A stretch of 64,000 nucleotides of DNA from Lytechinus pictus (Eukaryota): the NCBI RefSeq assembly GCF_037042905.1, contig NC_087250.1, forward strand, positions 22,632,001 through 22,696,000, written 5' to 3'. The first letter of the stretch is position 1. Every line of letters begins with the position of its first letter. The translations under genes and the position numbers were made by a program. Positions 35,541-64,000 of this stretch are shown one piece after another. Under the pieces are notes generated by a model. The model did not search any database, was not told the origin of the DNA, and saw only the letters and a program-made list of their open reading frames with translations.

Positions 35541-36025
35541 TTCATTATATGAGCCTATTAAAGAATAGTATAATAAAAATTGTGTAAAAATTAAAATCCA
35601 ACAAGTCTTGTTCAGTAATATCAGGAAGTATTCTATGATACTGAAAAACTCAAAATTCTTGAAAATTATTACAATCATTGCTTCTAATGAATATATTAAA
35701 TGCACTTTCATGATGGGAATATATTCTCAACATTTGTTATCTACCCAAAGTTAGGTTTTTATTTATTTATTATTAATTCATTGTTATTTTTGAGGGGGTT
35801 AGTTTCTATTTTGGTAAACATATCAAAATAAACATGAACAATTTTTCCCTAGAAACATAGATTTAAAATCTGGTATTTGATCACATAGCTGATACTATTA
35901 ATAACTGTATCTTCTCTCATCATCGTCTCTTTGTCTCTCTTTCTCTCTGTTCATCTGCCTCTCATTATTTTTTGTGTCTTCACCCCTCTCTCATCTATCA
36001 TTCTCTGTCTTCATCTCTCTGTCAG

Positions 36026-36241
36026 GGACTGGACCGAGTGTCGTATGCTACTGCCTCAGATGGCCCACTTTGAGGAGTGGTTCATCATCCTACCCCAAGA
36101 TCAAACCTGGAGGGAGAGCGAGTACATCGATACGGACGAGCTCCGCATCCCTTACGACCTTCTCGAAGGCTACGAAGTCGAGTGTGAGAATTGCTTCCAG
36201 GATCACGTCAATAGGCTCAATGCTGCGAAGAGGAAAGAGAG
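36026..36241 (+). CDS. ARHGAP35: p190 RhoGAP coding exon 5
   Basis: CT-rich acceptor; DWTECRMLLPQMAHFEEWF...RIPYDLL...FQDHVNRLNAAKRKER; donor gtaagt; phase 2-2. Confidence 0.92.
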
Positions 36242-36800
36242 GTAAGTCTTAGGGGGAAATGCATGTTTAGGGGAAACAGAGATGAGTGGGAGGGGGAGCG
36301 GATACATTGATACGGATGAGCTCCACATCCTGTACGACCTCCTGGAAGGCAACGAGATGGAGTGTGAGAATTGCTTCCAAGATCAAGTCAATAGGCTCAA
36401 TGCTGCGAAGAGGAAAGAGAAATGAGTCTTAGGGAGAAATGTGTGTTTGGGGGGAACAGAGATGAGTGCGAGGGGGAGCCGAGCGGATACATTGATACGG
36501 ATGAGCTCCACATCCTGTATGACCTTCTCGAAGGCTACGAAGTGGAGTGTGAGAATTGCTTCCAGGATCACGTCAATAGGCTCAATGCTGCGAAGAGGAA
36601 ACAGAGGTAAGTCTTAGAGGGAAATGCGTGTTTGGGGGAAACAGAGATGAGTCCGAGCGAATACATTGATACGGATGACCTCCACATCATGTATGACCAC
36701 CTGGAAGGCAACGAGATGGAGTGTGAGAATTGCTTCCAAGATCAAGTCAATAGGCTCAATGCTGCGAAGAGGAAAGAGAAATGAGTCTTAGGGGGAAATG
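36110..36800 (+). repeat. Tandem array (4 units, 174-185 bp) of the exon 5 3' half plus donor region
   Basis: YIDTDEL..YDLLEG.E.ECENCFQD.VNRLNAAKRK coding sequence recurs, ending at 36241, 36421, 36606 and 36780. Confidence 0.95.
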
Positions 36801-42734: not shown

Positions 42735-44477
42735 CTAAAACCCTTTTCTAGTAATGAAAATATGCAGTGATGTGTTTGCACCTGTTTGCATCTTAAATAT
42801 AATATCAACTGTCATCTTTATATTGAATCCACTCTTTCCAGCCAATAATTTTATATGGTCCATAACAACAATGTATTTTTTTATTTTCTAATATGTCATG
42901 CATGTACACAAATATTGTTTAAAACATCAACTTAATTAAAATTCATACAATTCAATTTTTTGTAAAGTCAAATACTAAAATTTTATTTAATTAGTTATTC
43001 AATTTCAAAATTGATTAATTTTTATCATTCATATTCCCACTCCATGATGGCCAAGTAATATTTCTAAATTAACATTCATACTGTTTTCAGTTCTACAGTT
43101 TTAAGTAATAGCAATATTTCTGTTTCTTCATTATCAGATATACAGTGTACAGGGAATAATTTTCCTGGTATCGCATCGCAATTTGCTCCATATTTTTGAA
43201 AGTCTGCTATGCATAAAGTCTTTTGTATAGCCTGTTTTTACATAGGACTGTACATTACTTAGTTGAGAGCTTTTTTACTTAGTTGAGAGCTTTTCTCTTA
43301 TGACCAAAAATGCTATTCAAATTTGTAAATCAAAATTTTTACCGAGTGTGCTTTAAGCTCTTCATAAAATAAATTTTGCTTTATTTATATTCAATGTCAA
43401 AAGAAATAGATATAATAAAGGATGGTGGGACATGGGCGATGTTTCATCAAACCCTTTTAACCCATTCAACACTATTTCAAATTATGATTTAGCCAGTCTG
43501 ATGCAAGGAGTTCATTATGGGGAGGGTGTCATTAGCATGATGTCAGGGACTTTTGCTGACAAATTGTTTCTAAGCCAATCACATGCAAGGATTTTAGTAT
43601 GGGGGAAGGTTTCATAAAGCATCATGCGAAATGATTTTCACAGACACACCGTTTCTAAGCCAAACAGATACAGTGATTTCAATGTAGAGGAGGGTTTCAC
43701 GAGGAATCGCATCTGGGAATTTCCCCCAAAAAATTGTTTCTCAACTGATTTAAAGGATAACATTGGGAAAATTACTAATAAAAAGTTTGATGAAATAATG
43801 TGCAGATCATTTGTTTCATGACGGCAAGACCCCTGAGACATGAAAAAAAAAACTGTGGGTTACTGTCAGAAAAGGAAGAATTAGTGCAGTCCCTCCAGCA
43901 AACTGCAAAGTGGTGGCAATTGACTCCTAAAATGTACTATAAGTATTAAGCTCTCTCAACCGTTCTTGTTGTCCAACGATATTCACTTGAGAATCACGAT
44001 CAGGAACTCAATAGATACAGATATAGAGCGATTCCGTACGTGTCGTACGGGACATTTGCATTTTGACAACAATGTCTAGTTTCCTAGCCGAATGCTTGAG
44101 CAATAAAATATTCTTTTTTATCAATGATAAAGCTATAGTGGGTAGTCATGTGAAAAACTAATAACCAACACAAAAAAAATTGATTATGGGTGAAGGTGAA
44201 TTATAGGTGGAAATGTTGTGTCGTACGGGACACAGAAATGTCTTATACGACACTTAACATTCTAAGCTCTAATTCACCAATGTACAACATATTTTTGTTG
44301 GTTGTCAGTTTTTTGCATGTCTACCCAGTAGTACTTTGATATCACCACAAAGCAAATTGAAGTTCTTCGTTCATTTGGACAGCAGATTAAAGAATGTGAA
44401 AATGGCTGATTTTTCTAGCATGGAATAGCACTATATAGGATTGGGTCTAATCTTGTATATCTTCCCATCCTTTGCAG

Positions 44478-44601
44478 TCGCAATCATATGACGGGGACTA
44501 CACGTTGGATAAGGTATTATACAGTCTTGAGCTGAAGACTATAGAGGGCAACATAACTCATCCTGGTAATCAACTCCAAACGGAAAGCTTCACTCCGCAA
44601 G
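44478..44601 (+). CDS. ARHGAP35: p190 RhoGAP coding exon 9 (pG1)
   Basis: tttgcag|SQSYDGDYTLDKVLYSLELKTIEGNI...SFTPQ|gtaaga; phase 0-1. Confidence 0.92.
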
Positions 44602-45047
44602 GTAAGAAAAGTGGCTTGTCATTGGGCGATTTCAAGTCCGGTGTTGGTTTTGGAAGCACAATTGGGTTTGCATTTCCTGCATGTAGCTCTAAAACCTATC
44701 CTGAGTTTACACATATAATCTTGATCACAATATTGACAGCTCAACACCTAATGAGTGACTTTACAGGACCAAATTAATTTTATGACTGGTACTATACTCG
44801 TGTGAAAATTGACATACATGTAATACCAACACCAAAAGGTCAAGACTGAACATGAAATCGCTCAATTTGTCCTGTGATATTTACTTACATGTATAATCTT
44901 TGACAATTCCATTGCATCTGTAAGAAATAGGATAACGATTGTATAATTGTGTGTAACCGTAAGTCTATGGAAAGCCATATACGAAAAATATACAGTCAGT
45001 CATAACTATCAATCGCATCTCTTTGTGTTACCCCCCCCCCCCCCCAG

Positions 45048-45246
45048 GTTGCATATGTGTCTTCACGTCGCTCGAGGGTTTCCAGTACGTCAGAGATTGC
45101 CTGGAACGTACCATTCTCTCCGATAGGGAGGAGTACAACTCATCTACCCTGAGGGACCTGGCCGTGGTGCTAATGTTCGGTCGGAGTACCAGTCCGGAGG
45201 CTGACACGGCCCAAGTCAGGGAGCAGGCCGACAAGTTATGTAGCAG
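45048..45246 (+). CDS. ARHGAP35: p190 RhoGAP coding exon 10 (pG1)
   Basis: GCICVFTSLEGFQYVRDCLE...ADKLCS|gtatgg; phase 1-2. Confidence 0.92.
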
Positions 45247-45861
45247 GTATGGTGTCTTTAAAATGCCTCAAGTAAAATTTGAAAATAAAGTTATCATATC
45301 ATGGGCTAAGAAAAATTGAAATTAATATATGGAAATAATAATGGAAAAATTCTACTGTTATAGTAGAACAATACTGTCACTGCCTGGTAATTTGTAAATA
45401 TGTCATCTCCTATGCTGGCCAGGGGTGGCATTTTAATGCTCTTTGTATCTCACCGAAAAGGTGCTACATAAATATGAACTATAATTATTATTGGAACAAC
45501 GTCGCTAAGCACGTTACAGATATATCATTACCCTGATCATCAGGTTTTGGCATGCGCGTAGGCAATTAATGCACTTTTTCCATTCCCTTGGGTGGATAAG
45601 ATGCGTCTGTGACGTCATAATGGAAAGCAGGTATGACCTCGTCGTCAGTGTGATCCTAGGAAATTTTGAAGAATTCAAGCAAAAAATTCTTTCCACTATA
45701 AATTCATTCTGCCTACCTGCTTTATGAAACAGTTACTGCATACATTTTAAAACTTGTGCTTGTTGCACAGTGTAAATACGTACCCTTGAATGTGCTGCAT
45801 TGCCACCACACACTCTTAAATGTGCATTATTTGTTTTATTTTTATTATTTACTTTCTGTAG

Positions 45862-46044
45862 ATTGAACAACTGTCAAATCGTCAATGTGCCTCCAGACAA
45901 CACCAACCTGTGGCAGGGGAAGAAATTCAGCGAATCTCAGATACAGGACGCCCTCAGGTCGGTGGTGGCCGGTCAGAAATACCGCAGCGGAACCCCCAAC
46001 CAGGCGGAGAGTGACCGAGGCGAGAACGGCGATAATGCTTTCAG
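45862..46044 (+). CDS. ARHGAP35: p190 RhoGAP coding exon 11 (end of pG1)
   Basis: LNNCQIVNVPPDN...KKFSESQIQDALRSVV...DNAF; phase 2-2. Confidence 0.9.
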
Positions 46045-46269
46045 GTTTGGACTTTTAGTTATACGCCAGTTTGCTTGTTGTTAAATGAGCTTAATATTTG
46101 GCCTAGTTTTTAACCTCCTACCACTTAATCTCTGATCTTTTATTCACATTCTATGTTCTTCACATTTTTCAGGTGTTCCACAAAAAGTTAATTTTGGCAT
46201 CAGATCTTGTGTAACTGCCAATGAAGTAGACATGGTTGAAGTCCATCTTACTTTTTGTGAAACACCTGA

Positions 46270-47931
46270 GGATCCTTCCTCCTCTCTTTGTGTTTTCTAC
46301 CTTTTTATCTGTGTCTCTCTGTCCCACTCTGTCTCACTTTTTCTCTTTGTCTCTCTCTTTTGCATTCTCTCTGTCTTTTCCCTGTGTTTCTCTGCCCTAT
46401 ATCTCAGTTTCCCTGTCTTTGTCCTTCTCTTTGTTTCTCAGTCTCCCCTGTCTCACTTTTTCCCCCTTTGTCTCTCTGTCTTGCTGTCTTTGGCATTATT
46501 TGTGGCAGTCGTTATTTTCTAATGTCAGGTTTTTCTGTGTACGAGTACATTAATATGTAGCTCATATAAAGTTGACATGAATATATTTTTCTGCAAAAGC
46601 CTGTTTCATGCCTTCATCCTTTTAATTTTTCCGCCCTTTTCATTTGTTCTCATTATAACTTTCTATCATTTACCCATGTCAATGTTGTATATTTTCCACA
46701 TTTACTTGGTATGGTTAACTATTACATGACCGTATATTATCTTAGTCTTAACCATTGCATCTCCCAACTCTTTGCAAAGATAATTTCATTCTGCAGCAAA
46801 TATTTATTTTATTGTATTCTATTTCTTTCTTGCCTGCTGATTCTTGTATGTTTGTACACGACTTGTAATTTCCATTTGACCACTTTTTGCCTTCTGCTCG
46901 TGTTTATTCAATGTTTTGATTTACCAATTCTTCCTGTTATTATCTCTTTCCCTATCTCCTGTGTCACTCTACTCTTCCACTTCCTCTTCTCTTTGCTTTA
47001 CCTCTTGTTATCACTCTTTGTTTATGATGCTCTTCACAATCTCTTTTCTCCCCCTCTTCCACTTCCTTCCTTTATTTCTTTCTTCCCCTCTATGTCTTTA
47101 TTCTCCTTTCTATCGTTTTGCTTTCCCTTCTCTCGCGTTTTTCACTGTGCCCCCCCCCCTTTTTCAATGACTTTCTTCACAATCTCTTCTCATTCTATTT
47201 TTCTCTCTATGACTCTATATCTCTTTATCATACTCTTACCTTCCTCTTGTATTCTCTCATTTTGTCTCTCTTTCCTTTATTTCTTTCTTCCCCTTCCTAT
47301 GTTATTCACTCTTTCCTTACTCCTTTTTGTTTTCCCTACTTATTCTTTGCTGTGCCCCTTTTTTCTATTTGAGTTCGTTCACAATCTCTTCTCATGCTAT
47401 CTCTCTCTCTCTCTCTCTGACTTTATTTTTCTTTGTCTTACTCTCCTATTCCTCTTGTTTTGCTCTCATTCTTTCTCTCTTAGTATCCCCCTCTCTAACT
47501 TGCTTGTCCTTTGTCATATCTCTTGTATTTTCTTCTTGTATTTTCTCTTCATTCTTCCCTCTCAAATTTGCTATCCTTCTCCAATCTCTTTGTCTCACTC
47601 TCCTTCTCTTCTGCTTGTATTCTCTCATTCTTTCTCTCTTAGTACCCCCTCTCTAACTTGCTTCCCCTTTGTCATATCTCTTCTTGTATTTTCTCTTCAT
47701 TCTCCCCTCTCTCAAATTTGCTATCCTTCTCCAATTTCTTTGTCTCACTCTCCATCTCTTCTCCTTGTGTTCTCTCAATCTTTCTCTCTCTGCCTTTCAT
47801 TGCACCTCACCCTCAATCCCTTCCCATATCATGATGTATATGCTTATCACTGCACCATCTGATCATTTGCATGCTTTTCTCATCTGCTACTTGCACACAC
47901 ACACACTCACCTATTTTCCTTCACCTATGGT
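46270..47931. repeat. Long pyrimidine-rich low-complexity tract with a ~159-bp internal duplication (47464-47790)
   Basis: C/T-dominated; the duplicated unit carries ctctctaac. Confidence 0.85.
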
Positions 47932-47933
47932 AG

Positions 47934-48029
47934 GATTGGCATGTGCATAGCGTGTGGTGATCCCTTCTCACCTGAATTAGTACTGCCTTTTCTCAGGACG
48001 CACAACTGCAGCCTCTCTGCTTTAGATAG
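47934..48029 (+). CDS. ARHGAP35: Candidate alternative (duplicated) exon 12a of p190 RhoGAP; may be a pseudoexon
   Basis: tag|G IGMCIACGDPFSPELVLPFLRTHNCSLSALD, paralogous to the exon 12b start with the same phase; 96 nt if the weak donor AG|gtacac is used. Confidence 0.5.
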
Positions 48030-48994
48030 GTACACCACTCTTACTCATTCATGCCACCTTTTCATTTTGCACACTACCTTATGGTATCCAACAGAATTGA
48101 GCACACTCCTTATTACTGTAACTCTTCACTCAATGATTTTATAGAATTCAAACAGTATGTGAAAATATTTAAAGATGATACACCTTTATGACAGGATACT
48201 TCATATTTTATGACTATGAAGCTTTTGTTTCAAATACAGGTGTATACAAAGCTTAACAACATATCCTTGAGGGATGTACTCACTTCTGTTGGATACTATA
48301 CTGCACATTAAACCTTGCTAAATACCTTATATTGCTATCTTGTATTACTATTCCTATACATTACTTCAATCACATTTATTTTTGGATTGTTTTCAAATAT
48401 ATGATGTTTGGCTTCTAATCATTTTTCCATATTCCATAAGACTAGTATTTTTTTGGTAAATTTCATTTACTTTGAGAACTCTATCATGTGTAGATAAAAT
48501 TCTTCATACATAATATTTTGCCATGTTTAAGTTTTTATCAAGTTGTATAAGATGTATTTTTTAGTAGAAAAATCAAAGATAGTGCAAATAAAAACACTTG
48601 ATTTTTTTCTGATTGTAATGCTGACCTATAAATGTAGCATTTCCTATGGGTTGGTGTCCTCTCTCTAGTGTTGTTATATATGTATAATGTAGAAAGTAGC
48701 AACGTATGTTATTGGCAAGATAAAGAGTGTATAAAATAGGGAAAAGACCTTGATAGAAAACAAATGTTTCTTGACAATTTCATTTTCCAAGGCAGAGGGA
48801 ATACTTAAATACATAAAAAAAACCTTTGTTGAAAAGTATGCGTAGAATTTTGATATGTTGGTATAAAGCAGGTCTGGTCTAAAACGACATTCCTGATTTG
48901 ACCTCATTTTGACCTCATTTGCATAACTCCTCCCCCAATCCACCACCACCACCACCAATATCACCAACACGTTCACCCTTCTCTACCCCATCAG

Positions 48995-49252
48995 GATCGG
49001 CCTATGCATGACTTGCGGTGACCCCTTCCAGCCGGACCTCGTCTTGTCGCCGATCACGAGCCACAACTTCATGGCCACGCCCAACGAGAAGAACTGCATC
49101 ACGAGCGACTTGTTCCTCATCGATACCAAGTGCCGGGTGGACTTTGAGATCTCTTCGTATCATCTCAGTGAGAGCCTACGGGACCAGCGGGTTCACCATG
49201 GCTACATCCTCGTCTATGCAGCTCAACGGAAGGCATCACTGGAGATGCTAAG
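48995..49252 (+). CDS. ARHGAP35: p190 RhoGAP coding exon 12b (pG2)
   Basis: IGLCMTCGDPFQPDLVL...HHGYILVYAAQRKASLEML|gtatgt; phase 2-2. Confidence 0.94.
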
Positions 49253-49829
49253 GTATGTTGAAATACAGTCAACTCTTAGGAGCGTTTCACAAAAGGACTT
49301 GTCGGACATTTCATTTGACAAGTCCATTTTATCCAGCAGTTTCCTTTGTAACCATGCTTCTCAGGCAATCAAAACCAAGGAAAGAAGTCAGATCTGACAT
49401 CTTGTTGGACAGACATTTTGATGAAGGGTTCCCTGATATGTGTTTCATAAAGCTATTCATGATATTACCAAGAACTTTTGGAAGGACTGGAACGTGTTCT
49501 TAGGTGATAATTCAGTTATATATGGATTATCGTGTCGCGTAAGAATGGGTCACAAGTCGTGCGTTTAGTCTTTCATAACTTACGAACAGCTTATGAAAAG
49601 GCCTCTATGTGTGTATAGAAGGTCTAACTTGCGTTTTCCCTCTTCCTGTATAATATTCTTACCTTCAAGCTACAAGAAGTTACAGGGTCACACAAGTATT
49701 AAGTACCCTGAGCTGCTTCCGGGAATTTTTGGTCATTGTCAGTTGTGAGAATTACTACTTCTTCTGTCATACAAATACCTGTACAAGAATGAATAACTAC
49801 AACATGATGATTTTCTTGTCTTATTTCAG

Positions 49830-49990
49830 GTGGTTCATGAAGTTAGTTGAGCCTATACCGACCCTAGTGGTGGCTGTGTGTGAAGACATCAACTCGGCTG
49901 CGGACGGCATAGCGGAGGGCCAACGTCTTGTGGACGGGACAGCCACTGCAAAACTAGTCACAGCCAATTGCTCATCGTTCAGAGAACAAA
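49830..49990 (+). CDS. ARHGAP35: p190 RhoGAP coding exon 13 (pG2)
   Basis: ttcag|WFMKLVEPIPTLVVAV...AEGQRLVD...SFREQ|gtatgt; phase 2-1. Confidence 0.9.
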
Positions 49991-50928
49991 GTATGTATTC
50001 ATTGTGGTGACCTGATGGGAATTTATTCCTTCAATTACAGTGTGTGTATCAGTGGTGATGCGATATTTGCTCTCGCGATAATTGCTCCGGGTTTAATTTC
50101 GTACCTCCCTCAATGGCTAAGCTTTATATTAAGGAGCCCTAGACTTTGTCTCTAGACTTTGTCTATAGACTTTGTCTACCATTTTCAGATGTGTTGCAGT
50201 TTAATTTCACTCTCACAAGTATAAGATAATTATTTCTCCAAATGTAAAAAGGCAATTGTTTTTACTTTAAATCTAAGGATGTATTTGGTGGATTGCTTGG
50301 AAGTGAAACAAAATAATTTTGTTAAGCAGAAAAATAATTTTGTTTAACAGTAATTCCTGAATATGGAGTGATTGATACATGTAGATCTAGGAAAAAACCT
50401 GCAGCTGAACCGACTCCATCTGCTGGTATGTCTTTTCACCGAAGCCAAAGAGTGACCAGAATTGAACTTAAACTGTATCATACCATTACAATGAGGACAA
50501 AGCTTGATGAGGCTCGTTTAACTGAAGATATATTTATATGATTCAGTACATTAGCGAGGTGACACAACATTTGCTTCAGCGACAATTGCTCTGGGCTTAC
50601 TTTCGTCTAATGTGTAGGATTAGGGTTTTAATGAGGTTTGAGGATAGGTTTAGGTTTAGGGTAGGGTGTAGTGTTAAACCCAGGGTTGAAGTTGGTCATT
50701 CGATTAGTGTGTGGAATTTACAGCAGAGCAATTATCGGCGGAGCTAATGTCTTGGAACCGTAACAGCTGCTAGGCAAAAGCCAGTGAGGGTAATTATGTT
50801 GCATCGCGATAATAATGATAATATTCCAACGTCATCCAGCTTTTCATTGTTGTTGATTTGAAAAGTTGAAGGAAGAGTCTCTCTCGTAGCGAATGTGAGG
50901 AGGATGTTTAAAATGTGCCTTAGGAGAG

Positions 50929-51222
50929 TGGAGCGTCGTGGCCCAGTGGATTAGTCTCCGGACTTTGAAACAGAAGGTCGTTGGTTCAAATCCCGGCCAT
51001 GGTGTAATTTCCTTCAGCAAGGAATTCATCCACAGTGTGCTGCACTCGACCCAGGTGAGGTAAATGGGTACCGGCAGGAAGTAATTCTCAAAAAGCTGTG
51101 TGCACCGAATAGGTAGCCTAGCTTAGCCGGGTAATAATAATAGCAGGGCCCGCTGGGAGAACAGTTTTCGGAACTGAAGTGGCTACCTTCGGTAAATATA
51201 CCGTTATTGTTATTATTATTAT
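50929..51222 (+). mobile_element. tRNA-derived SINE
   Basis: Close match to the 14901 copy; (TTA)n tail. Confidence 0.88.
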
Positions 51223-51279
51223 TAAGAGTTTATTTCAATATGACTCTTTCATATTCAACTCTTTGTGAATCACCCACCA

Positions 51280-51604
51280 GGGCCCTGTCTTACAAAGAGT
51301 TAAGATTGATCTGATCAACCTCAAGTATATGGAAATCCATCAACGTCATAATTTTTTCTTCAGGAAATTTGCACAATGTCTTTTTCTTCAGGAAATTTGC
51401 ACAATGTCTTTTTATTCAGGAAATTTGCACAATGTCCTTTGAAACAAAGAGAATCACACTGAATTATAAAAAAATAGTGAATGTATGAATATACGTCATA
51501 TCTAGAAATATTTTGAAGAAACATGTATTTTAGATGTTGACGTTGCTGGCTGTCCATAGTTGTGATTGATTCGATCAATCGTAAATCTTTGTAAGACGGG
51601 GCCC
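51280..51604. mobile_element. MITE family C with an internal triplication
   Basis: cag TSD; ttcaggaaatttgcacaatgtc x3. Confidence 0.85.
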
Positions 51605-51688
51605 AGGTGTACTTGTGAGCAATATAAAAAACACAATGTTATTTTTATTTCATTTTCTTTCTTTGTTGTTTAATTTTCTTTCTCTCAG

Positions 51689-51803
51689 CTGTGATCTACA
51701 ACAGTTTCTTGAAGGAAGCCCACAGGAAGAGGAAAGAAACAGAGAAGCTTTACAAGGCAGATGAGATCACTAACAGACCTCCAATGGAGTTACCCTCTCC
51801 AAG
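51689..51803 (+). CDS. ARHGAP35: p190 RhoGAP coding exon 14 (end of pG2)
   Basis: Long pyrimidine tract, cag|(T)VIYNSFLKEAHRKRKETEKLYKADEITNRPPMELPSP|gtaagt; phase 1-2. Confidence 0.88.
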
Positions 51804-51876
51804 GTAAGTCTTTTTATAAAATCAAAGTTGAAGTCAAATTATCAAACAAATATTATCATAATTACCACACACCACA

Positions 51877-52689
51877 GCTCCGTCTTACAAAGAGTTACAA
51901 TTGATCCAATCAATCTCAACTGTATGGAAATCCATCCTTACCAGAATTTTTTCTACAGGAAATTTGCAAAATCTCCATGGTAAACAAAGAGAATCACACT
52001 GAATCTTCAAGAGAATGAGGAATGTATGAAAATACAATCTATCTAGAAAATATTTTGAACAAATTTGCATTTTAGATGTTGATGATGCTGGCCATCCATA
52101 GTTGTGGTTGATCGGATCAATTATAACTCTTTGTAACACGGGTCCCTGGGGCCGTAACACAAAGCTTAGCAATGACCGTAGAACGGTTTTCTACGATTGA
52201 TTCCATTGACTACAATGTACAATCGTACAAATCAAGCGTACGATTAATCGCTAACCTTTGTGTTACGGGACCCTGGTGGGTGTTTCATAAAGCTGATCGT
52301 AATCAACGAACGACTGGTGACCCATTCTTGTGCTACATAATATATCCCTATGTAACTGACTTAGCACTAGAACATGTTCCAGTCGAGCTTTTTACGAAAA
52401 GCTTGATGAAACACCCACCAGGGCCCCATCTTACAAAGAGTTACGATCGATCCAATCAATCGTGACTATGGAAATCCATCAGTGTCATAATTTTTCTACA
52501 GGAAATTTGCAAACGTCCTTTGTAAAAAAAGGAGATCACACCAAATTGTCAAGAAATCAATGAATTTATGGATATACATTCATATCGAGATTTGTTTTTG
52601 ATCCAACATGCATTTTATATGTTGACTTTGCTGGCTTTCTATAGTTGCGATTGATCGGATCAATCGCAACTCTTTGTAAGACAGGCCCC
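51877..52689. mobile_element. Cluster of four abutting MITEs (C, gggccgtaacacaaag-type, D, C)
   Basis: Four TIR pairs joined by single CTG/CAG triplets. Confidence 0.82.
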
Positions 52690-53010
52690 AGGCAATGCTG
52701 TATGAAAAACTGATAGATGAGAAATCACATGAGCTTGTAAATAGACGTTAAAAGATGGGCGTTTCTGCAACCCTGTTTGGCGTTCAACGATGTATTGGAT
52801 AGAGCTACGTCGATATTGTGCTGCTCAGTGGCTGCCGTGCCCACGATCAAATGGGCAAAACTAATTTCTGAGTATTTCTATTTCTATTATATATTAGATA
52901 TCTATTTTGAACAATAAAATATGGATTTTCATTTTTTTCATTTTCATTAAGCCATCCATCCATAGATCAGCTGTAATTCATTTCAATATTTTTCTCTTCT
53001 TGTTTTTTAG

Positions 53011-53051
53011 TCGAGATGTCTCTGTAGATGATGCCCAAACACCCACGTCAG
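53011..53051 (+). CDS. ARHGAP35: p190 RhoGAP coding exon 15 (41 nt, linker)
   Basis: ttttttag|(S)RDVSVDDAQTPTS|gtatga; phase 2-1 bridges exons 14 and 16. Confidence 0.75.
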
Positions 53052-54168
53052 GTATGAAACAAACTATCACATTCCCCTTAACACATATATCAGTATCCAT
53101 ACTGCATGGTATGCCCTATTTATATTCTTGCATTTTGTAGTGTCTTTGGTATATTCACATACACCATACTCATTGTTTATATAGTATAGAGCAGCCTAAA
53201 TATATGAAGGCAGAATCGTTGGTGGGCTAATGAAAGGTCGTACCTCAAAATTTGAATAGTTTGAGTCCAGCTCAGATCATTGTCTAATTTAGAATTATGG
53301 TGATGTTGGCAACCTGACACTATCTTAAAATATTCTTCTAATTCTATGCAAAAGGAGGTCACCATAATATGTTCTTACGACAAAATATAACCCTTCTTAA
53401 CTTTTCTCATTTTCTTTTCAAATTTTGAGCAAAACAAGATTTGTGACGGCACAATGACATATGTTTCCAGTCAGTTGATCAGTTGTTGAATTTGTGTTTT
53501 GGGGGCCTACGTCGCCAAAAAAATACTAATGATGTTGATCCTTTATTTGTGGGTCCTAAATTTTTTCTAACGGTTAGGTGAAAGTTTAGTCATAGTAATT
53601 AAATCTAACTGTAATCACAACGTTCCACTTTACCCCCAATTTAGTGACTGTTAATTGTAATTTCGTTGACGAGTTTAGTAATATATATGTATGACTTGAA
53701 AACCTCCGTAATTTTTAGTTACTAGTAACTAGAAATATTGTTTACTGATCTACTATAATTACCACAGCTATCCATGTGTAAAGACAAATGCCTGACTCCA
53801 AGTGAATGAAAACATAAACCCCTTTGTACCATTATAATATACATGTAGTTAATGTACCCATTCCAGACCTACATGTACATGTAGCACAATACAATGGTTT
53901 AATATATACATGTGTACATATGTAAGTGGCATGGATGTGATATGAATTAGAGGAAAATTGTCTAAAATGATAATAATGATTTTCCACCTCCATATGGCAT
54001 GGACCGATTATTCCAAGCTGTCTTAGACTATACATGTAGATCCAACAAATTAATTTCTTTTAGTGTTATCAATTTCCTGTTTCTTGTGCATTTTTTTAAT
54101 GCAAGTCTAGGACAGTGAAGTTGCCTTGGGCATTTTGTCAAAAGTCTGTGCCACAAATCGTGCTTTAA

Positions 54169-54964
54169 CCCTTAATAAACTGGGGAGGGGGGGGTCAACC
54201 CCCCCCTCTACAAATTTCGTCACTACGCCGCTGCGCGAAGTTTTGGACCGCGCCGCTCTCTGAATTTTTACTTTCAAGTCTTGCGCATCTTTTGAGACCA
54301 AATTTGCGACGCCCGGGTATGCGGTTTTGAAATTACGCAACATTTTGTAAGTGCATGTCAGACCCGAAATTGCTCAAAAACGTGATTCCGTGTACAAAGT
54401 CAATGCAAATTGTGTTTTTCAACCAAAAATCATAAATGTATGATTATTTTTACTTTTGTTGGTTTAAATGGATTTATTTTAGGCTATTTATGATCGCAAA
54501 AGTGTCCCAAACAAAGTTCATCGGGATAATAACAAAGGCTTGAAAAAACTAAGAAATACATAAGAATTTTAGAAAACAATAAAATACATAAGAAATTAAT
54601 TATTTACACATGCATTAATTTTTGCAATTTTTTGTAGATATTTGTTAGAAATGTAATAATTGATACTCCCACCAAAAATTAGCATTCTACTAGCTATATA
54701 AATTGAGTTAAAGGCAAAAACATACACAAAAAACAAAATTTAGGGCAAATTTCATACCCTTATTTGCTTAATTAATTAATAAAAAAATTTAAACAATTAA
54801 TTTTTTGAAGATTTTACCATATAGTCTTGTAGTTTACATCCGGCTCTACGCGCGTGCGAATTTTCACGCCGATCGCGCAATCAGCGGCAGAGATCTGAGG
54901 GGAGGGGGTCAAATTAACCCCCCCCCAGTATATTCTGGTCCGAAATAGCCCAGTTTAGATAGGG
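54169..54964. mobile_element. piggyBac-like non-autonomous element
   Basis: TTAA-CCCTtaataaactggg ... cccagtttagatAGGG-TTAA. Confidence 0.82.
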
Positions 54965-55166
54965 TTAAAATTCTATCGGCATTTTTTCAGAGCCACTTTC
55001 CTACATCCACCATCATGACATGCCGGTTTCCTGTGTGAAAGAAGCCGCTTTGACTTTTAATGCAGTGCCTTACGCTCTGTCTAGAAAAAAAAACTTTCTC
55101 AACGAAACAATAGTTAAGATTCACATGTATGATATACTTCCTGTATACACTGTACTCCAAGACTAT

Positions 55167-55477
55167 GGCCTGTATTCTGAAGTCAAGTTTAACTTAGACC
55201 ATGGTCTAACTCTGTGCTAAAATTATTGGAAGCCAAAAGTATCAAAATATTTATTAAGTTGCATGTTTCTTATGTTTACTGTGCTCTTTCCCGATTCATC
55301 GATGGTGAAGACAATCATTTATTTATACTTCCTACACAATTATGAATGATTTGAGAGCCAAATGAGCTGAAATATTATATATCTACTGTTAGTGATTTAT
55401 GTAGCAATTGGCTTTCCATACTTAAACCACAACTTTAAACCTGAGTTTAAGTTAAACTCGACTTCAGAATATGGGCC
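55167..55477. mobile_element. MITE family E
   Basis: TIRs and interior match the 40878 copy. Confidence 0.88.
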
Positions 55478-57870
55478 TACGTATGCATGTTAAGTATGGT
55501 AATGGTAATCTGTATACCAGTATGTATGTGGGAATCGCTTTTCATGTTTAGCAGTGGGAAAAAGTAAAAAGGTATAAATTTTGGATATTTAGGAATGTAA
55601 ATAAATTATTTATGAATCTAGGAGTGAAATTACAAGAGTAGTTCAGTCTGTATTGGATGGGTAATAGAATTTAGCTTGCTTTTACCGCTTCATGGATGTA
55701 AATTTGCTCCCAGTTAAAAGTTGCCCAGTCTGGGCCCTCTTGTATGAAAGTTACTGGTAACTTCACCATACAATTGCAATTGCCATGGTAACAATGCTCA
55801 ACAGCCAATCAAAATCAAGGATTTTATGGAAATAACCAATGGATGGTAAGGTTACAATAGAGGTAACTTTCGGGCAATTCCATAAAATGATCAACCTTTT
55901 TTTTACGTCCTACGCCCATTTTTCTCAGGTTTTGCTTCACTTCATAAACTGACAAAGTCATGATCCATTGAAAACATAACAGACTGTCAAAAGAACAAGA
56001 AATCAGAGACAGAAATTTCATGACGTACATATTTTATGGAATTGCTCTTACATGTAATTGCAATAGGGCCATCTGAAGTACTTTGAATCCATAGTAGTGG
56101 TATTATGATGAAATAACCTATATACCACGCATACCCAATTAGATATTCTATTCAAGCTCTATGAGAGTAAAAAGAGCGTAGTATTTGATTACCTTTAATT
56201 GCCTTGAATGGCAATTAATTTTGAGATTTCAATCTTGAATTTTAAACAAAAGGGAAATTTATCAACAATTATATATGATGAAGGGAATTATGATTATGAT
56301 TCAGAGGAAACACAAAAATAAGTGATACTGGCCCAGAATCTGTTTATGATGTCTGAATCATTTTAATTAATATCATCCTCCATCTTGGCTTAATAATGAT
56401 GAAGTCTTGCCTTCGTTTCTTTCATACACCTATTGTTATAATGATTCAACCATCAGCATTAATTTATCTGATGTTGATTATTTCCTTTCAAAGCTGAGTG
56501 AAATTCATTTAGAAAAACAGTTAAAAGTTTGCTCATTTAGATTATGTCCTTTCAGAGCATAGTGAATTTCATTAAAAAAAACGAAATAAAAAAATGGAAT
56601 TGGTGAAAGTGCATTAACTTTCCTGACTCTTGTTCTAATTTATCCTTTCTTCATTTTCCACCCTTCCACCCCTCACATGTTGGCTTCCTATTCCTCTCCT
56701 CAACCCCCTATTCAATTAATGGTATCTCCCTATTAATGCAATGTGTGTTCCTTTTTTTGTATTGTAATGAATTGTGTTTTTTTTTGCTTTAACTTCCCGT
56801 ACATGCAAACGTGTTGTTCCTATGGTGTAAATATACTGTATTTTTTATCCTTGTAATTGTTGGCACATCAAGTGTTATTTTCCTTTCCTTTTTTCATTGT
56901 ACTTTCCTCTTTCTTTATTGCCTCCATAAACTGTCTTTGTCTTCAATTGACTGTTGATTTTATATCTGTTATTGTGTTATTTTTTGGTCTCACAATTTTT
57001 TTTGTCTTTTGTCTGCATCTTTGCCTTTATATGGCTTACTAATTTGGTGTCTGTATTTCTTTTGGGTTAAATCATATTAATATATTCATTTATTGCTACT
57101 TCAAATGTTCATCTCAACAATATTTGTGTGTCACCATAATTTCTTCTGGATATTGATTGATTTTTTATTTCATTTTCATTTCATTTGTTCAATGTTACAA
57201 ATAATGAAAATTACCAAATTCTTTTTCCATTATTTCTCATGAATTGGAACCTTGGTATTTCTTTTATGTTTGCCCACTGGATTTGATTTTCAAATTCTTT
57301 GGTTTCAAATTTGAATCAAACTTCAACATTTTGTGTTATTTACACATCTTGCACTTTCCCCCTTTTCTCATTTGGAAAAAAAATGATGAACAAATCCTCT
57401 ATTTTAATAATTATTTCATTTTATTATTATATGGTCCCACATGCTCTGTTTTATGTTGTCTATGTCTCATAACGCTTTTGCATCCCTACGATTTTATGTA
57501 TATTAATCATCATGGCTTGCGTAATATATTCAAATATTGCTATATTGTATAAATTCCTCTTGATGCATACAAATTTCCCATTATTGTATGAGTTGGTAAT
57601 AATCTCTTGCCTTGCATCTGATTCAAGTTGCCCCCCTCTATTTATTGATACCTTTCAATTCTATCCCTTTTCTACTCTGAATACATCTTGATAATTTGCA
57701 TAAAAATGGAATACCTTCACTTTGATTTGATGATATCCGAACGGTCTGCATGATGTGGTTGGTCTCAATATCTATATATGCATACGTGTTGCATGATGCA
57801 CCGTGCCCCGCCCTGCCCATCCCCACCCCCATTACCAATGATGCCACCCCACCCACCCCCCTTCCAATAG

Positions 57871-58002
57871 GCTTCACCCCTGAGTTTGTACCCCGCCAGA
57901 GATCCGTTTCTTCGGAAGCGGTGGTCCACGATCCCCTGGTTAAGCCCAGTGAAATACGCAACCGCATGAGGCTACAGCAGCAGTCCCATATTAGCTTCCG
58001 AG
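57871..58002 (+). CDS. ARHGAP35: p190 RhoGAP coding exon 16 (linker, phase 1-1, possibly cassette)
   Basis: caatag|GFTPEFVPRQRSVSSEAVVHDPLVKPSEIRNRMRLQQQSHISFR|gtaaaa; GC-richer than flanks; 132 nt. Confidence 0.75.
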
Positions 58003-58042
58003 GTAAAAGAATGAACGTCTCGTTTTAGTATAAAATATTTAA

Positions 58043-58622
58043 ACGGATGGTCCGGGCTGAAAATATTTATATCTTAATACATAGAGTAGAATTCATTGAG
58101 CAAAATGCCGAAAATTTCATCAAAATCGGATAACAAATAATAAAGTTATTGAAGTTTAAAGTTTAGCAATATTTTGTGAAAACAGTTGTCATGAATATTC
58201 ATTAGGTGGGCTGATGATGTCACATCTCCACTTTCCGTTTTCTTATGTTATTACATAAAATCATATTTTTTTCATTATTTCATACTTGTGTGAATAATAT
58301 GTCTCTCATATAATGAAATAAGTTGCAGCAATAAATATCTAATGCACTAAATCAATTGTCAATCCAATTTTTTTAGTTCTTGGAGGAAAAAATTGAATAA
58401 ACCTAATTTCATATAATAAAATACAAAAGAACAAGTGGAGATGTGACATCATCTGCCCACCTAATAAATATTCATGACGACTGTTTTCACAAAATATTGC
58501 TAAACTTTAAAATTCAATAACTTTGTTATTTTTTATCAAATTTTCATGAAATTTCGGCATTTTGCTCAGTGAATTCTACTCTGTTTGTTAAGCTATAAAT
58601 ACTTTCAGCCCGGACCATCCCT
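58043..58622. mobile_element. TTAA-flanked MITE with ~200-bp TIRs, 40 nt after the exon 16 donor
   Basis: ggatggtccgggctgaaa / tttcagcccggaccatcc plus long subterminal symmetry. Confidence 0.85.
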
Positions 58623-60026
58623 TTAAACGGATAAATATTGCGAATAAACCCTTTGTTGAATGTTGAGTGTTTTTTGTGAAATTATAGCGTCCAGAGCGTC
58701 ATGCCTGACTGATGTGTACGCTCTGGAAGAATCCTCTGATTATTAATAATTTGACCAAATTTGTCATTTTTTCATATTTTCTGAGTACACAGTAGTGTTC
58801 TTGAAATTTGAACAAATTAAATCAGTGAATAAAGCCTTTGTGAATGCAGAATATTGTGCGATTCAGGAACTCTCTGTTTCGATGAAGAAATGGAGGGACA
58901 AGCATCATATACCTGTAATGCTTTGCCCCTCTAATATTTTTGTCTGCTCAGTAAGTTCTGTCGCCATTAAATTGAAGGCACTCTAGCCCTTAAATTATGC
59001 CTTTAAAATGTCCCTAAACCGAGTCATTTAGGTTTCTGGGCATATACCTATCATTTAATACTTATTCAGTTATAAAAGTAATTATGAGATATATTGCGTA
59101 CAGGTTTGATGTAAGCATAATTCTTTATACCTACATGTATCTAGTATCATGAATATTACCTTTTGTTGTATTATTACCCATTCTTCATTCAATGTTTAAT
59201 CACTCTCCCCTTCAATAGTAATGAACTTGTGATAAACATGTTTTGAATATTTATTCAATTGAGTGCAGATAGTCTGTTAATCTTAACCAGGCTATTACAT
59301 GTATTTCATTACTCATTTAAATCGTCCATTCAAAATCTCCAAAATATAAGTACACATGTTGGTGCCCATAATGTGTATCGCATTTCATTTGACTGTGGTA
59401 TGAGAGCAGTATACATGCAGATAAAATGCCTTTACTGAATAAAGCATAAGTGCTAGGCTGGGGATTGAACCCTGGACCTTTTTATTGGTTGAGTTGGTGC
59501 CCAAGGTTACTTGACCACTTCACCATTGTAGATGTTTGTTCATATTCAGCAAGAATTGGGGATCAGTGATCTTTTGGAGAAAGATTTGCGTTTAAATATC
59601 AAGCGCAAATCCATGAGCACTTTTGATTGGTTAAAAAAACCAAGTTGCGTTTGATTTTCTGAGTTGCGTTTGATTGTAACTTGTTCTGAGGTTCTGCAGC
59701 GGGCCCCAAGGTTTTGTTCAAATTAAAGTGTTGTGCAAAGAGGTGTGATGAATTCAAGGCAAACTCACAATGACATTGGTGTTACTATAAATATAAAAGA
59801 AAAAAAAAATGAATCAATTGAATCTATTTGAGAGAAAGGTTCCTAAGAGTTTAGATCCTTCAAATTTTATTCAGGTTTGGATTAATTGCAAGTTTTCGTG
59901 AGGCTGTCTCCTTGGCCCTCTAACGCAAACCTTAGCGATCGATTATGGATCTGATTAATGATACATTGCAATGATCATTATATACAAATCAATCTTACCA
60001 ATCAATTATATGATCAATTGCTAAGC

Positions 60027-60429
60027 TTAAAGGTAAATTCCAGTTCTGGTAACGATCTCAAAATGACTTTTTACAGAATCTAATATAATGACCACCCAAG
60101 TGTCTGTTTGTATGAATAAAAAATATGTGCCAAAGGATTCTGGAAGAAATTGTGTAATTGCTGAGAAATAAGCAAAATAAGCACGGATTCGGTCACTTCC
60201 GTCGGGTCTTTATTCCAGCAATAATAATACACTGTCCCACGTGTGCCTATCTGTGTTGGCGATCTTCAGTGTGATCGTATTTCAGCTTAGATTTTATGAT
60301 TTCACAAAGTTCAGTTTATGTAACTGTACCAGATCTAGATCCACGATGATATAGTCATACTTAACCTTGGTTTTACAGACTTTCTCACGAAATCAGTGTT
60401 TTACTGCAACTACTGTAATTTAGCTTTAA
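60027..60429. mobile_element. TTAA-flanked element family A
   Basis: Near-identical to 2601-3000. Confidence 0.82.
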
Positions 60430-60834
60430 TATCATTGGCCCTTGGTAGGTGTTTCATAAAGCTGTTGGGAAGTTACAAGCAAACAAATGAATAGTTACCC
60501 TTTCTTGTGGTAGATAATAGACACTAGATTTTCATTGGTGTTGATGTAGTTCCTAAGAAAGGGTCACCAGTCGTTTGTAAAGTCACTCGTAACTTATAAA
60601 CAGCTTTTTGAAATGACCACCTGAACTTCTTAAATTTATGTTTAAAATGGCTTTCCTCATAAAGAAAAAAAAAAAAGAAAGACCGAATTCATATGAAAAA
60701 ACCTTACGTAAAATGAATAGCACCCTGTCAAGTTCAAAATAAAGAAGTTTCTGTTATTTTCTGCAGAAAAGTTAACCAGTTTTCTTATCATTTGTAATAA
60801 TATTTATTATTATGTATCTGTTTTATTATGTCAG

Positions 60835-60906
60835 GTGTGGAAGACCAGTTATATGATGAGATTGGTCATCAGCAATCTAGATGGGCACCAAAACCCAGTA
60901 ATGAAG
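60835..60906 (+). CDS. ARHGAP35: p190 RhoGAP coding exon 17 (linker, phase 1-1)
   Basis: gtcag|GVEDQLYDEIGHQQSRWAPKPSNE|gtgaat; 72 nt, open frame. Confidence 0.72.
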
Positions 60907-60939
60907 GTGAATATACATATATACTTCCTCAAAGATCAA

Positions 60940-61650
60940 TGAAAATGATACCCCTCATTGTGATAGAAATATACCTGTCATTATGATGAAGAAAAATAAT
61001 TTACATGAGTCCATATTCCTATGATACACCTCAACCTTATGAAAATAAAGTTTACAAACTGGTTTACAACATTATTCCATATTTCCTCCACGATTATTAA
61101 GATGAAGATACATGTAATGTTGATTTCCAATATTCCAAATTCCTTCTGATATTATCGATTATAATACCCCTCTTTATGGCTTGAATGTCATCCCTCTCAT
61201 GATAAAGATTACAAATAATTTACAGAATTATTCCATATCCCTATGACTGAAAAATATGTTTCTCCCAAAATGATAAGATTAATTCTTTTTTTTTGTTTAT
61301 AATTGAGTGATAAAGATTAGTAATTGAGTTACACCATTAATCCACATTCCTTCTGAGATGCAAGACTATTTTACCCCTCTTTATGAGACAAATATCATAC
61401 CCCTCTCTATGATAGCAATATCATACCCCTTGTGATAAAGATTGCAAATAATTTACACCATTATTTTGTAATATGACTGAAAAATATGTTACCCCTAATA
61501 AAAAATGGAATAGCGTTCCCATCATTGTGATAACGATAACATATTGATTTACAGCATTATTCCACCTCCCCTCTCAGACAAAGATTACAATTGAATTTCC
61601 ATTAATTGAGTAATGAAGATCACAAATTGATTTACAGCATAATTCCATTT
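60940..61650. repeat. Degenerate tandem repeat downstream of exon 17
   Basis: Recurring tgataaagattacaaataatttacaccattattcca / cataccccctc motifs. Confidence 0.65.
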
Positions 61651-63321
61651 TCCATATTATGTTAACTGTTATCATTGGCTTTGCTTCAGAGGGAAAATGG
61701 CAATTGTTTTAAATATTGATATCACTTGCAAATTGGTGCTCATGTACATGTATAGCAGACATTGAATGAAAAGCTTCTCATTGCGATATTTCGTGGTTCG
61801 AATTGATACATAACACTTGCTATGGATATTACATAGCTTACAGTATTTACATCTGCCAATTGATAATTTTCTCATCCCTTTTCAAGTCATGATAAAAACC
61901 ACATGTACCATCTTAGTCCCAGGTAAACTCTTTTTTTTTTTGCCTGGAGTCCAGAGTGCGTGCCTGGTTGCGTTTAGCCTTTTGCTTGATCACGTTTTAA
62001 CAAGCGTTTGTTTAATGATTGCCGGACCATGCCGTCATTTTCATGCTAGTACATTCATTCTGCTTTAATAGTGTAGTTATGAATAAAAGAAAATTGAGGG
62101 TAACTTTGCTCAAAGTTTTATTTTGAATTAATCTTATAAACACATCATTCTCATGGCACTGCGCAGAGAGTTCATGCGATTTGATTAACCATGTGGGGTA
62201 GATCATTAATTCCATCATGACTTTGCATTAATTGCTACTTGTCTTCTCAAGTGTTTGTTTATTACTCTGGGTCTGGGAGGGGCCTTGTGAAGTGGTTTTT
62301 AGGGTTGATTTGCCCTGCATGCTACATTTTAAAGCAAAATTCTGTTCTGGGATTAGGTTTGCAGTGTTGATATGCCTGGAAAGAGGGAAATCAATAAGAT
62401 TTTAATCTTCTTTTCCCTTTCATTTTTAAAAGTTGTCTTGAAGATTCAATTTTTTTCTGAAATCAAAGAAGCTTCTTCATGATTAAGAGGATTTTATTCA
62501 CGTGCAGTTCGGCATAAGATTAAGTTTTTCTGCTCATAATTGGCATTTAAGCATTGTGAAACTTATTGATACAATATTGCACTGTGTATCATTGATGAGC
62601 AAATCAGGGTTTTAGAGGTTTGCTGTGTTTGAGATTTTTATTTTTATTTTTTGTTTGGTGTAAAAGAGGGAAAACCAACTTTTTTGATTCTGCAAAATGA
62701 TACGGGCAAAGTATGACAGTCACTGTTCTCTTTTCCATTAATGTAACAAAGTATGGAAATTTCTGTTTCTTTATGGTTTTATTGATGTGAGGATTTATTT
62801 TGTACTATCATTTCTTTTTTATTACCTTTTCTTTTCCCCACCTGCTTGCCGATCTGTGCTTCAATATTGCATTATCCTACCCTATAAAATTACCTTGTGT
62901 ACATGTTTGTCCCCCCATGGCTTTTTCCTCTCCCTATAAAATCCCATTAAACCATTACCATAAACCACATCTCCTATGACTTTTCTTCCCTCCCTATACA
63001 ATTTCATTATACCATTACCTTGTATGTATGTCCCCCATATGACTTTTCCCCCTCTCCTTATACGATCCCATCATGCACCTCATTTAATATCTCTTCCTTT
63101 TGCACTGAATAACTTAAAACCCCATCCCTTATATAATCATGTTATCGTACTTCCTTACATCACTTATTTCTCTTATGTAATTCCTGTCCTTGTCTTTGCC
63201 CCATGCATTTTGTCCCATGCATTTCTTAATAACCCTACTGATCGTATTACTCCTCCTGATACAAACCCATTACACTCCCATTATTTCCTCATCATTCTGA
63301 TGAATTAAAATATACTCTCTC

Positions 63322-63560
63322 TTTTACCACTCCTTATACCACTCCTACCACTTTTTATACCACCCCTTATACCACTCCTTATACCAATGCTTGTACCACT
63401 CCTTGCACCAATCCTTCACCACTCCTTATACCAATCCTTATAATGTACTCCCCTTTTACCATATCTTATACCTATCCTCATACCATCCTTTATCCTTACA
63501 CCAATCCTTTTACTAATCCATATACTACCTCTTATACTAATCCTTATACCATCCCTCATA
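63322..63560. repeat. 12-bp minisatellite (ccactccttata)
   Basis: Degenerate tandem copies. Confidence 0.85.
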
Positions 63561-63712
63561 TTTCTGTTATATCACATGGTGTCTTGTACTACATTATTTC
63601 ACTTCCAAAACCCATTTTTATACATAATTTTCCATCATACTTTCAATTTCCCATGACCAATACCAAACCCTTATGCAAACCCAATGTCTTATACCCCTTC
63701 CCCGGTAAGCAG

Positions 63713-63826
63713 CTCGTATGTACCACACAGCCAACTATGAATCCAGGCAGCGGCGATGGGGCTCTGAGGTGAGGCGAAAGCCTAATTTACCGTTGCCCTC
63801 GACACCACAGAGCACTGGGACAGAAG
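63713..63826 (+). CDS. ARHGAP35: p190 RhoGAP coding exon 18 (linker, phase 1-1; NAGNAG acceptor 63710/63713)
   Basis: aag cag|(A)RMYHTANYESRQRRWGSEVRRKPNLPLPSTPQSTGTE|gtatag. Confidence 0.68.
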
Positions 63827-64000
63827 GTATAGGTTTGGTTGATGAATATTTCTCTGTCTCTGTATTTGTGCATCGTTCGTACATGTACCTGTTCCTGTAT
63901 TGTGCATTGTGTTGCCTTAGTCTATCAAACCAATATACCTTATACTCTCTTAATATCTTATACTGTAAAAGTGGGACAAAGGGTTAAGCTTTCATTAATA

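Follow-up and report, generated by a model that had tools for sequence, protein, structure and literature searches.

AG exclusion zones were described by Gooding et al. 2006 (Genome Biol 7:R1, PMC1431707) as AG-free zones upstream of alternative exons that carry a branch site and a pyrimidine tract at their 5' end. The examples in the sections cited here include a zone of 1126 nucleotides (nt) in human PTPRS, whose candidate branch sites are at -1079, -829 and -288, and one of 590 nt before Fugu PTB exon 11, and the distant branch points reported there as mapped span a range of 100-400 nt. Related observations come from Taggart et al. 2017 (Genome Res 27:639, PMC5378181), where distal sites mapped from lariat reads and binned at >100 nt preceded skipped exons and mostly co-existed with a proximal branch point. 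A more general scarcity of AG words before acceptors, asymmetric between the strands and including short introns of sea urchin, was reported in PMC10946897 (J Evol Biol 2023), where it is ascribed to selection against spurious 3' splice signals. Here we describe a zone of about 1.26 kilobases (kb) that is almost devoid of AG in the p190RhoGAP gene of the sea urchin Lytechinus pictus. It lies in a 64,000-nt stretch of DNA (the window; NC_087250.1 22632001-22696000), directly upstream of an optional exon (exon 16), and is referred to below as zone 2.

Zone 2 is a long, clustered echinoderm example of the known AG exclusion zone and not a new mechanism. Its unusual aspects are its length, a depletion that base composition fails to account for, and the occurrence of four or more cases together in a single gene. 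Like the zones in the cited sections of Gooding et al., it is free of AG up to the acceptor, has branch-site and tract motifs at its 5' end and is followed by an alternative exon. Unlike them, its strict AG-free stretch measures 243 nt, and the kilobase scale belongs to a CAG/TAG-free run with three weak AAG or GAG trinucleotides. It also differs in coming from an echinoderm, in being known from sequence, and in that the feature recurs before four or more annotated alternative exons of a single gene. Exon 16 resembles the exons in the cited part of Taggart et al. in having both distal and proximal candidate branch sites and in being mostly skipped; the distal sites were lariat-mapped there, whereas here they are motifs, up to 1.25 kb away. 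The strand-asymmetric scarcity of AG upstream of an acceptor is a likeness to the general tract avoidance described in PMC10946897, which in the portion cited is about the final tens of bases in short introns, in contrast to 1.3 kb of a 4.8-kb intron here. Our literature search turned up no account of long AG-free zones in echinoderms.

Results

The p190RhoGAP gene was identified by its N-terminal exon, which is 100% identical to L. pictus 'rho GTPase-activating protein 35-like / 5-like' (annotated isoforms X1-X15). We placed 16 L. pictus protein models on the window and the 80 kb downstream of it (144 kb in total), carrying the window numbering past 64,000 (e.g., for the exons at 68746 and 109142). 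The main models gave 45 exons. Zone 2 sits inside a 4.8-kb intron (53052-57870), and the exon that follows it, at 57871-58002, is bordered by TAG^G at the acceptor and GAG^GTAAAA at the donor, the caret marking the splice junction.

By direct count, AG occurs in zone 2 at 56871, 57591 and 57626 only, besides the acceptor AG at 57869-57870, which leaves a strict AG-free tail of 243 nt from 57626 to 57869. An earlier sequence-only reading of the window had listed the same three positions in roughly 1.26 kb and an AG-free final stretch, and the recount agrees with it to the base. From the composition of the zone (A.23, C.21, G.12, T.44; 65% pyrimidines), 34.4 AGs are expected against the 3 observed (Poisson P = 8.5 × 10−12). 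Shuffled controls, which that reading had proposed as a check, never reached comparable counts: none of 20,000 mononucleotide shuffles had three AGs or fewer (mean 34.4, minimum 15). A dinucleotide-preserving shuffle is unusable as a null for the AG count because such shuffles keep it. A second null, in which the probability of G after A in the remainder of the gene was adjusted to the zone's G content, predicts 32 AGs. Other dinucleotides stood at 31 against 34.4 expected (GA), 92 against 116.7 (CT) and 101 against 116.7 (TC).

We also compared the zone with its surroundings and with the genome, using segments of 1259 nt taken every 50 nt (2855 from each strand of the gene, and 7000 from both strands of 200 kb of random genome sequence). 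The ratio of observed to expected AG was lowest (0.11) in the segment at 56601, the most extreme of the 12710 compared; the minimum elsewhere was 0.64 on the antisense strand of the gene and 0.45 in the random genome sequence. The remainder of the same intron has a normal AG content. The depletion is thus specific to strand and dinucleotide, with GA, CT and TC normal and the antisense minimum at 0.64, and it ends exactly at the acceptor. These results support the sequence-only reading, which had inferred strand-specific selection against AG.

Low complexity, which that reading had discounted, is indeed not the cause, with GA near expectation and a zlib compression ratio of 0.327, within the range of 0.259-0.350 in six control segments (five of them at 0.328-0.350). 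TRF (Tandem Repeats Finder) detected no tandem array inside the zone, and in the 811.7-megabase genome the zone is single-copy, hitting only itself. A transposon or repeat origin is ruled out by this lone self-hit together with the lack of a tandem array, and the view that the zone contains no transposon insertion stands. The excess of TG in the zone (115 of 151 Gs are preceded by T) was dismissed as a signal, since it follows from AG avoidance and CpG depletion. Segments behaving like dispersed repeats lie at 50286-52901, 54210-56171, 58030-58787 and 59442-60749; in the RNA runs, both of their strands show very high contig and read depth. Zone 2 occupies the repeat-free gap between two of these segments.

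The context of the leftover AGs sharpens the picture. All three are AAG or GAG: CAG and TAG together occur 0 times in the zone against 22.4 expected, and AAG and GAG 3 times against 12.0. The resulting CAG/TAG-free run and the other features described here are listed in Table 1.

Table 1. Positions, in window numbering, of the AG-poor zones and runs, the splice-site features and the exons around them
Feature	Position	Strand	Remarks
AG-depleted zone (zone 2)	56610-57870	+	3 internal AGs vs 34.4 expected; single-copy
CAG/TAG-free run, 1308 nt	56560-57868	+	longest on sense strand of 144 kb; ends at the exon's TAG acceptor
Residual AG, AAG context	56871-56872	+	followed by relaxed branch-site and tract candidate TTTTCAT, 56891
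Residual AG, GAG context	57591-57592	+	followed by relaxed branch-site and tract candidate TGGTAAT, 57594-57600
Residual AG, AAG context	57626-57627	+	5 nt 3' of CTGAT (A at 57621); 5' edge of the 243-nt AG-free zone
Branch-site-like heptamers CATTAAC, TCCTGAC, TTCTAAT (cluster of three)	56612-56639	+	A at 56617, 56626, 56638
Pyrimidine tract adjoining the distal branch-site cluster	56640-56700	+	3' of the three heptamers
TGCATG copy 1	57747-57752	+	124 nt 5' of exon
TGCATG copy 2	57790-57795	+	81 nt 5' of exon
C-rich pyrimidine tract near acceptor (runs CCCC, CCCCC)	57800-57866	+	read directly
Branch-site candidates at conventional position	57833-57842	+	TACCAAT (A at -33, no U at -2), CAATGAT (A at -30)
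Acceptor AG (TAG^G) of cassette exon	57869-57870	+	read directly
Cassette exon (exon 16)	57871-58002	+	132 nt, phase 1-1; encodes G-FTPEFVPRQRSVSSEAVVHDPLVKPSEIRNRMRLQQQSHISFR
Upstream constitutive exon (exon 15)	53011-53051	+	41 nt; donor of skipping junction 53051>60835
Downstream constitutive exon (exon 17)	60835-60906	+	72 nt; protein-model mapping
Zone 1, pyrimidine-rich, AG-poor	46797-47931	+	3 AG vs 10.3 expected; ends at unannotated 96-nt segment 47934-48029
Zone 3	62790-63709	+	AG 0 vs 12.6 expected; ends at acceptor of cassette exon 63710-63826 (exon 18)
AG-free run, 918 nt	62790-63708	+	longest on sense strand of 144 kb
AG-free run, 720 nt	56871-57591	+	inside zone 2
AG-free run, 647 nt	68097-68744 (NC_087250.1 22700097-22700744)	+	ends at alternative exon 68746
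AG-free run, 577 nt	46795-47372	+	within zone 1 region
AG-free run, 518 nt	108622-109140 (NC_087250.1 22740622-22741140)	+	ends at alternative exon 109142

We next looked for branch sites under a strict rule set beforehand: position 6 of a heptamer had to be A and position 4 T, no fewer than 6 of its 7 letters had to match the TACTAAC classes, and the next 40 nt had to contain at least 80% pyrimidines. The 144 kb contain 15 such sites on the sense strand and 5 on the antisense strand, and any strict site is found in 0.6% of 80-nt segments. Three of the 15 form the distal cluster, 1232-1253 nt 5' of the acceptor and just past the boundary AG at 56608, and they are the sole strict sites in zone 2. 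With relaxed thresholds, the remaining candidates in the zone are at 56891 (after the AG at 56871) and 57594 (after the AG at 57591), right behind internal AGs, a pattern that was spotted post hoc. Measured from the acceptor, these weaker modules lie at about -974 and -271, and a third, the CTGAT 5 nt before the AAG at 57626, lies at about -249. Two more strict sites, a perfect TACTAAC and a TACTAAA followed by a long tract, open the zone before the exon at 68746, about 610-620 nt upstream; the final 60 nt of that intron are A-rich, with no pyrimidine tract at the acceptor. Two further strict sites are situated 120-123 nt upstream of the exon at 36026.

Exon 16 was proposed from the sequence as a symmetric optional exon of 132 nt (phase 1-1), and its AG and GT flanks and its presence or absence among protein models agree with this. 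Its peptide is absent from all 15 current L. pictus isoforms, which read ...TPTSGVEDQLYDE across the 53051>60835 junction, and present in one older L. pictus model, XP_054757541. It was found in 13 of 13 fetched L. variegatus isoforms (97.7% identity), in 14 of 14 fetched full-length isoforms of S. purpuratus (90.7%) and in one Diadema setosum protein (86%). Its conservation marks exon 16 as old and constrained coding sequence, which is skipped throughout the current L. pictus annotation.

RNA data on 44400-64000 came from one contig set (labelled X1) and three raw-read runs depleted of ribosomal RNA (rRNA; labelled X18-X20), all under the same organism label. Exon 16 is listed for no run recorded as RNA, and the contig sets in which it is listed are only presumed to be RNA. 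Raw-read depth over the exons of the gene is about 17-27 in the three runs, where the depth bin with exon 16 is mixed with the repeat that begins near 58030, so that inclusion is unreadable from it. In the contig set, a spliced 4489-nt contig has a depth of 64.3, and exon 16 is found only on a 165-nt contig with a depth of 2.95 that reaches 15 nt into the downstream intron. The depth-64.3 piece over 60863 begins five letters before exon 17, and these five letters, at 60830-60834, equal the last five of exon 15 and differ from those of exon 16. We read this piece as the skipping junction. The junction that had been predicted from the sequence is present in every current isoform, and in RNA it is inferred from this one aligned piece.

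After examining exon 16, we determined whether comparable zones occur elsewhere in the gene. The five AG-free runs in Table 1 are all those of at least 500 nt on the sense strand of the 144 kb, in which the longest CT-free run, equivalent to AG on the opposite strand, measures 271 nt and the longest GA-free run 414 nt. Four of the five longest CAG/TAG-free runs terminate at annotated alternative acceptors, namely those of exon 16, exon 18 and the exons at 68746 and 109142. Isoforms X5 and X10 skip exon 18, while the exon at 68746 is included in 10 of the 16 models and that at 109142 in 14 of the 16. An AG-free zone of at least 200 nt precedes 4 of the 16 alternative acceptors and none of the 28 constitutive ones (Fisher one-sided p = 0.013, 44 acceptors). 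The zone before 68746 has 0 AGs against 4.0 expected and the zone before 109142 has 0 against 15.0; composition accounts for part of the absence of AG in the sister zones, and for none of it in zone 2.

The 20 random 10-kb stretches of the genome (200 kb) contain no AG- or CT-free run of at least 500 nt, and the four runs of at least 400 nt found there are simple repeats or low-complexity T-rich sequence. The lack of comparable zones in this sample indicates that they are rare and does not show a genome-wide architecture. Of the recurrent kilobase-scale splicing architecture suggested by the sequence-only reading, the part that concerns this gene holds: the window does contain the two other zones, and the sequence beyond it adds another two; the genome-wide pattern does not emerge from the random 200 kb.

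Some of these regions have further features of their own. The unannotated 96-nt segment at 47934-48029, at the end of zone 1, has AG and GT flanks and is open in the phase of the next exon. Its peptide is 58% identical to the first 24 residues of the exon at 48995-49252, of which it is a partial tandem duplicate. It is found in none of 44 fetched proteins, its raw-read depth is about 0, and a TGCATG is located at -66. Exon 18 has a tandem acceptor of the NAGNAG type (AAG^CAG, 63707-63712), both parts of which are annotated as used, isoform X2 having one extra alanine. A CT-rich low-complexity region at 27340-27800 includes 390 nt free of AG and does not end at an acceptor; its lack of AG is explained by composition (0.5 AG expected).

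Outside the zones, the gene contains two groups of repeated coding segments. The 3' part of the exon at 36026-36241 (YIDTDELHILYDLLEG...NRLNAAKRKE[RK]) is present at 35889-36781 as four tandem copies with a spacing of about 185 nt. All frames are open and the first copy alone maps to annotated proteins, and the copies may be alternative or decayed duplicate exons. Downstream of the window, NC_087250.1 22707606-22739385 contains about 17 small exons (39-152 nt), each with a tyrosine motif x-Y-G-V-V-[DN]-[KR]. These exons are skipped block-wise, in combinations that vary among isoforms X1-X15.

Discussion

AG is specifically depleted up to precisely the acceptor of an optional exon, and such zones recur at other alternative exons of the gene. 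We suggest from this that zone 2 is probably an extended AG exclusion zone with a distant-branch-point layout, belonging to a regulated cassette exon and its 3' splice site. Because this statement combines a claim about selection with one about distant branching, our confidence in it lies between that in its two parts. That selection acts via the choice of the 3' splice site, keeping AG out, is very likely. We give slightly less than even odds to the actual use of one or more branch points located over 200 nt upstream. Under this explanation, once a branch point is chosen the spliceosome would take the first usable downstream AG, preferring CAG or UAG. Any new CAG or TAG between the branch site or sites and the true acceptor would then act as a false acceptor and be purged by selection, leaving only three AGs in weak contexts (AAG, GAG, AAG) in 1.26 kb. 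The far-upstream modules of branch site and pyrimidine tract, strongest at -1232 to -1253, would correspond to the layout of distant-branch-point exons, and slow or inefficient use of the acceptor would favour skipping.

An AG exclusion zone is expected to leave at least 100-150 nt free of AG before the acceptor, to hold a branch site and tract near its 5' end, and to precede an alternative exon. Here, 243 nt are strictly AG-free and 1308 nt are CAG/TAG-free, and the branch site and tract are present as motifs at 56612-56639. The exon is missing from 15 of 15 current isoforms, is retained in one older model and has a depth of 2.95 against 64.3. Exons with distant branch points are further expected to lack a good branch site at -18 to -40, where exon 16 has TACCAAT and CAATGAT. 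The presence of these proximal candidates makes it an intermediate case, the same feature that separates clear from intermediate cases in the cited sections of Gooding et al.

Several observations, besides these proximal candidates, weigh against the explanation that we favour. Usable candidates at -30 and -33 with a C-rich tract mean that distant branching is not required, and first-AG scanning from a branch at 56626 would reach the AAG at 56871 before the true acceptor. Folding of 56600-57880 gave a minimum free energy of -202.7 versus -192.0 +/- 8.1 in 30 dinucleotide shuffles (z = -1.3); a fold no more stable than that of the shuffles gives no support for a structure that would shorten the distance. 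Raw-read depth across the zones is about zero in the three rRNA-depleted runs and gives no lariat or branch signal. All fetched L. variegatus and S. purpuratus isoforms include exon 16, so skipping is documented in the annotation of one species. Among the acceptors of the gene, zone length is overall alike for alternative and constitutive exons (Mann-Whitney p = 0.42), the tail alone differing, and zones of ordinary length (22-148 nt) precede 12 of the 16 alternative exons.

Some of these points would fit avoidance of decoy acceptors alone, with a conventional branch at about -30 and no use of a distant one. The pyrimidine-rich region upstream would then be a platform for proteins that bind pyrimidines, C-tracts or UGCAUG, and AGs would be purged since any AG behind a pyrimidine tract would mimic an acceptor. 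C-rich tracts such as that at 57800-57866 could bind poly(C)-binding proteins. TACCAAT and CAATGAT followed by this tract, the TGCATG copies at -124 and -81, and the interception of first-AG scanning by the AAG at 56871 are all consistent with such an arrangement. So is the modest contribution of distal branch sites beside proximal ones in human minigenes, as reported in the cited part of PMC5378181. Classical PTB-type words, however, are not enriched in the zone (TCTT 17 versus 22.6 and TTCT 13 versus 22.6 in shuffles), and the strongest branch-site and tract modules lie exactly at its 5' edge. The sister zone before 68746, moreover, has no tract at the acceptor and a perfect TACTAAC 620 nt upstream. 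On balance we consider decoy avoidance alone rather unlikely. That the zone is a compositional or mutational by-product, AG being rare without selection in T-rich, G-poor sequence, is extremely improbable. Its 12% G and 65% pyrimidines point that way, as do two sister zones in which composition explains much (3 versus 10.3 and 0 versus 4.0) and the repetitive or low-complexity nature of the random-genome AG-free runs of at least 400 nt. Against this, composition predicts 34.4 AGs, GA is at expectation (31), no shuffle of 20,000 had three AGs or fewer, the rest of the same intron is normal in AG, and the zone is non-repetitive; the 92 occurrences of CT exclude a strand-symmetric mutation process.

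Whether Rbfox proteins contribute to the regulation of exon 16 is a separate matter, and such a role is a lead and not a result. The TGCATG positions in the sequence-only reading, 57747 and 57790, match our direct reading. Two copies within 125 nt upstream of an optional exon are a likeness to Rbfox-regulated cassette exons, seen here as motifs, and at -124 and -81 both fall within the distance of about 300 nt from an exon at which (U)GCAUG is expected for Rbfox exons. Rbfox sites upstream of an exon usually repress its inclusion, and the pair may add repression of this type, a possibility that we hold tentatively. It is fairly likely that the pair is due to chance and that Rbfox has no role in the regulation of the exon. 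The sense strand of the 108-kb gene has 64 copies of TGCATG (0.59 per kb), and two copies in 125 nt have a nominal P of 0.0026 for a single stretch, which over the 44 acceptors available gives an expectation of about 0.11 (44 × 0.0026), so that one such pair is unremarkable. The nominal P itself speaks against chance, as do the copies within 150 nt of four of the five zone-preceded exons (-66; -124 and -81; +12; -146), a distance picked after seeing the data. The Fox-1 C-terminal family (PF12414) had no match in the genome and none in the named control genomes either, so that this outcome favours neither side.

Returning to the extended AG exclusion zone, real use of branch points as far upstream as 1.2 kb for exon 16 and 0.9 kb for exon 18, and of others at 0.6 kb and 0.5 kb, is unlikely. 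If they were used, a set of cassette exons of the linker region of sea urchin p190RhoGAP would be co-regulated via an acceptor search of kilobase range, well outside the 100-400 nt of the mapped distant branch points in Gooding et al. The second-step search for the 3' splice site would then be able to cross over 1 kb of pyrimidine-rich RNA that has no structure, bypassing AAG and GAG. A gene with at least four zones offers one locus for testing branch points at 0.5-1.25 kb, in an organism whose embryos are open to injection and knock-down. Zone 2 is itself a clean case of selection on a single dinucleotide because, unlike for most long AG-free stretches, base composition fails to explain it. 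From it one would predict that splicing of a deeply conserved insert of 44 residues in a Rho regulator is regulated, even though the current L. pictus annotation omits the exon that encodes the insert; more generally, long AG-free zones could flag optional exons missed by RNA-based gene models.

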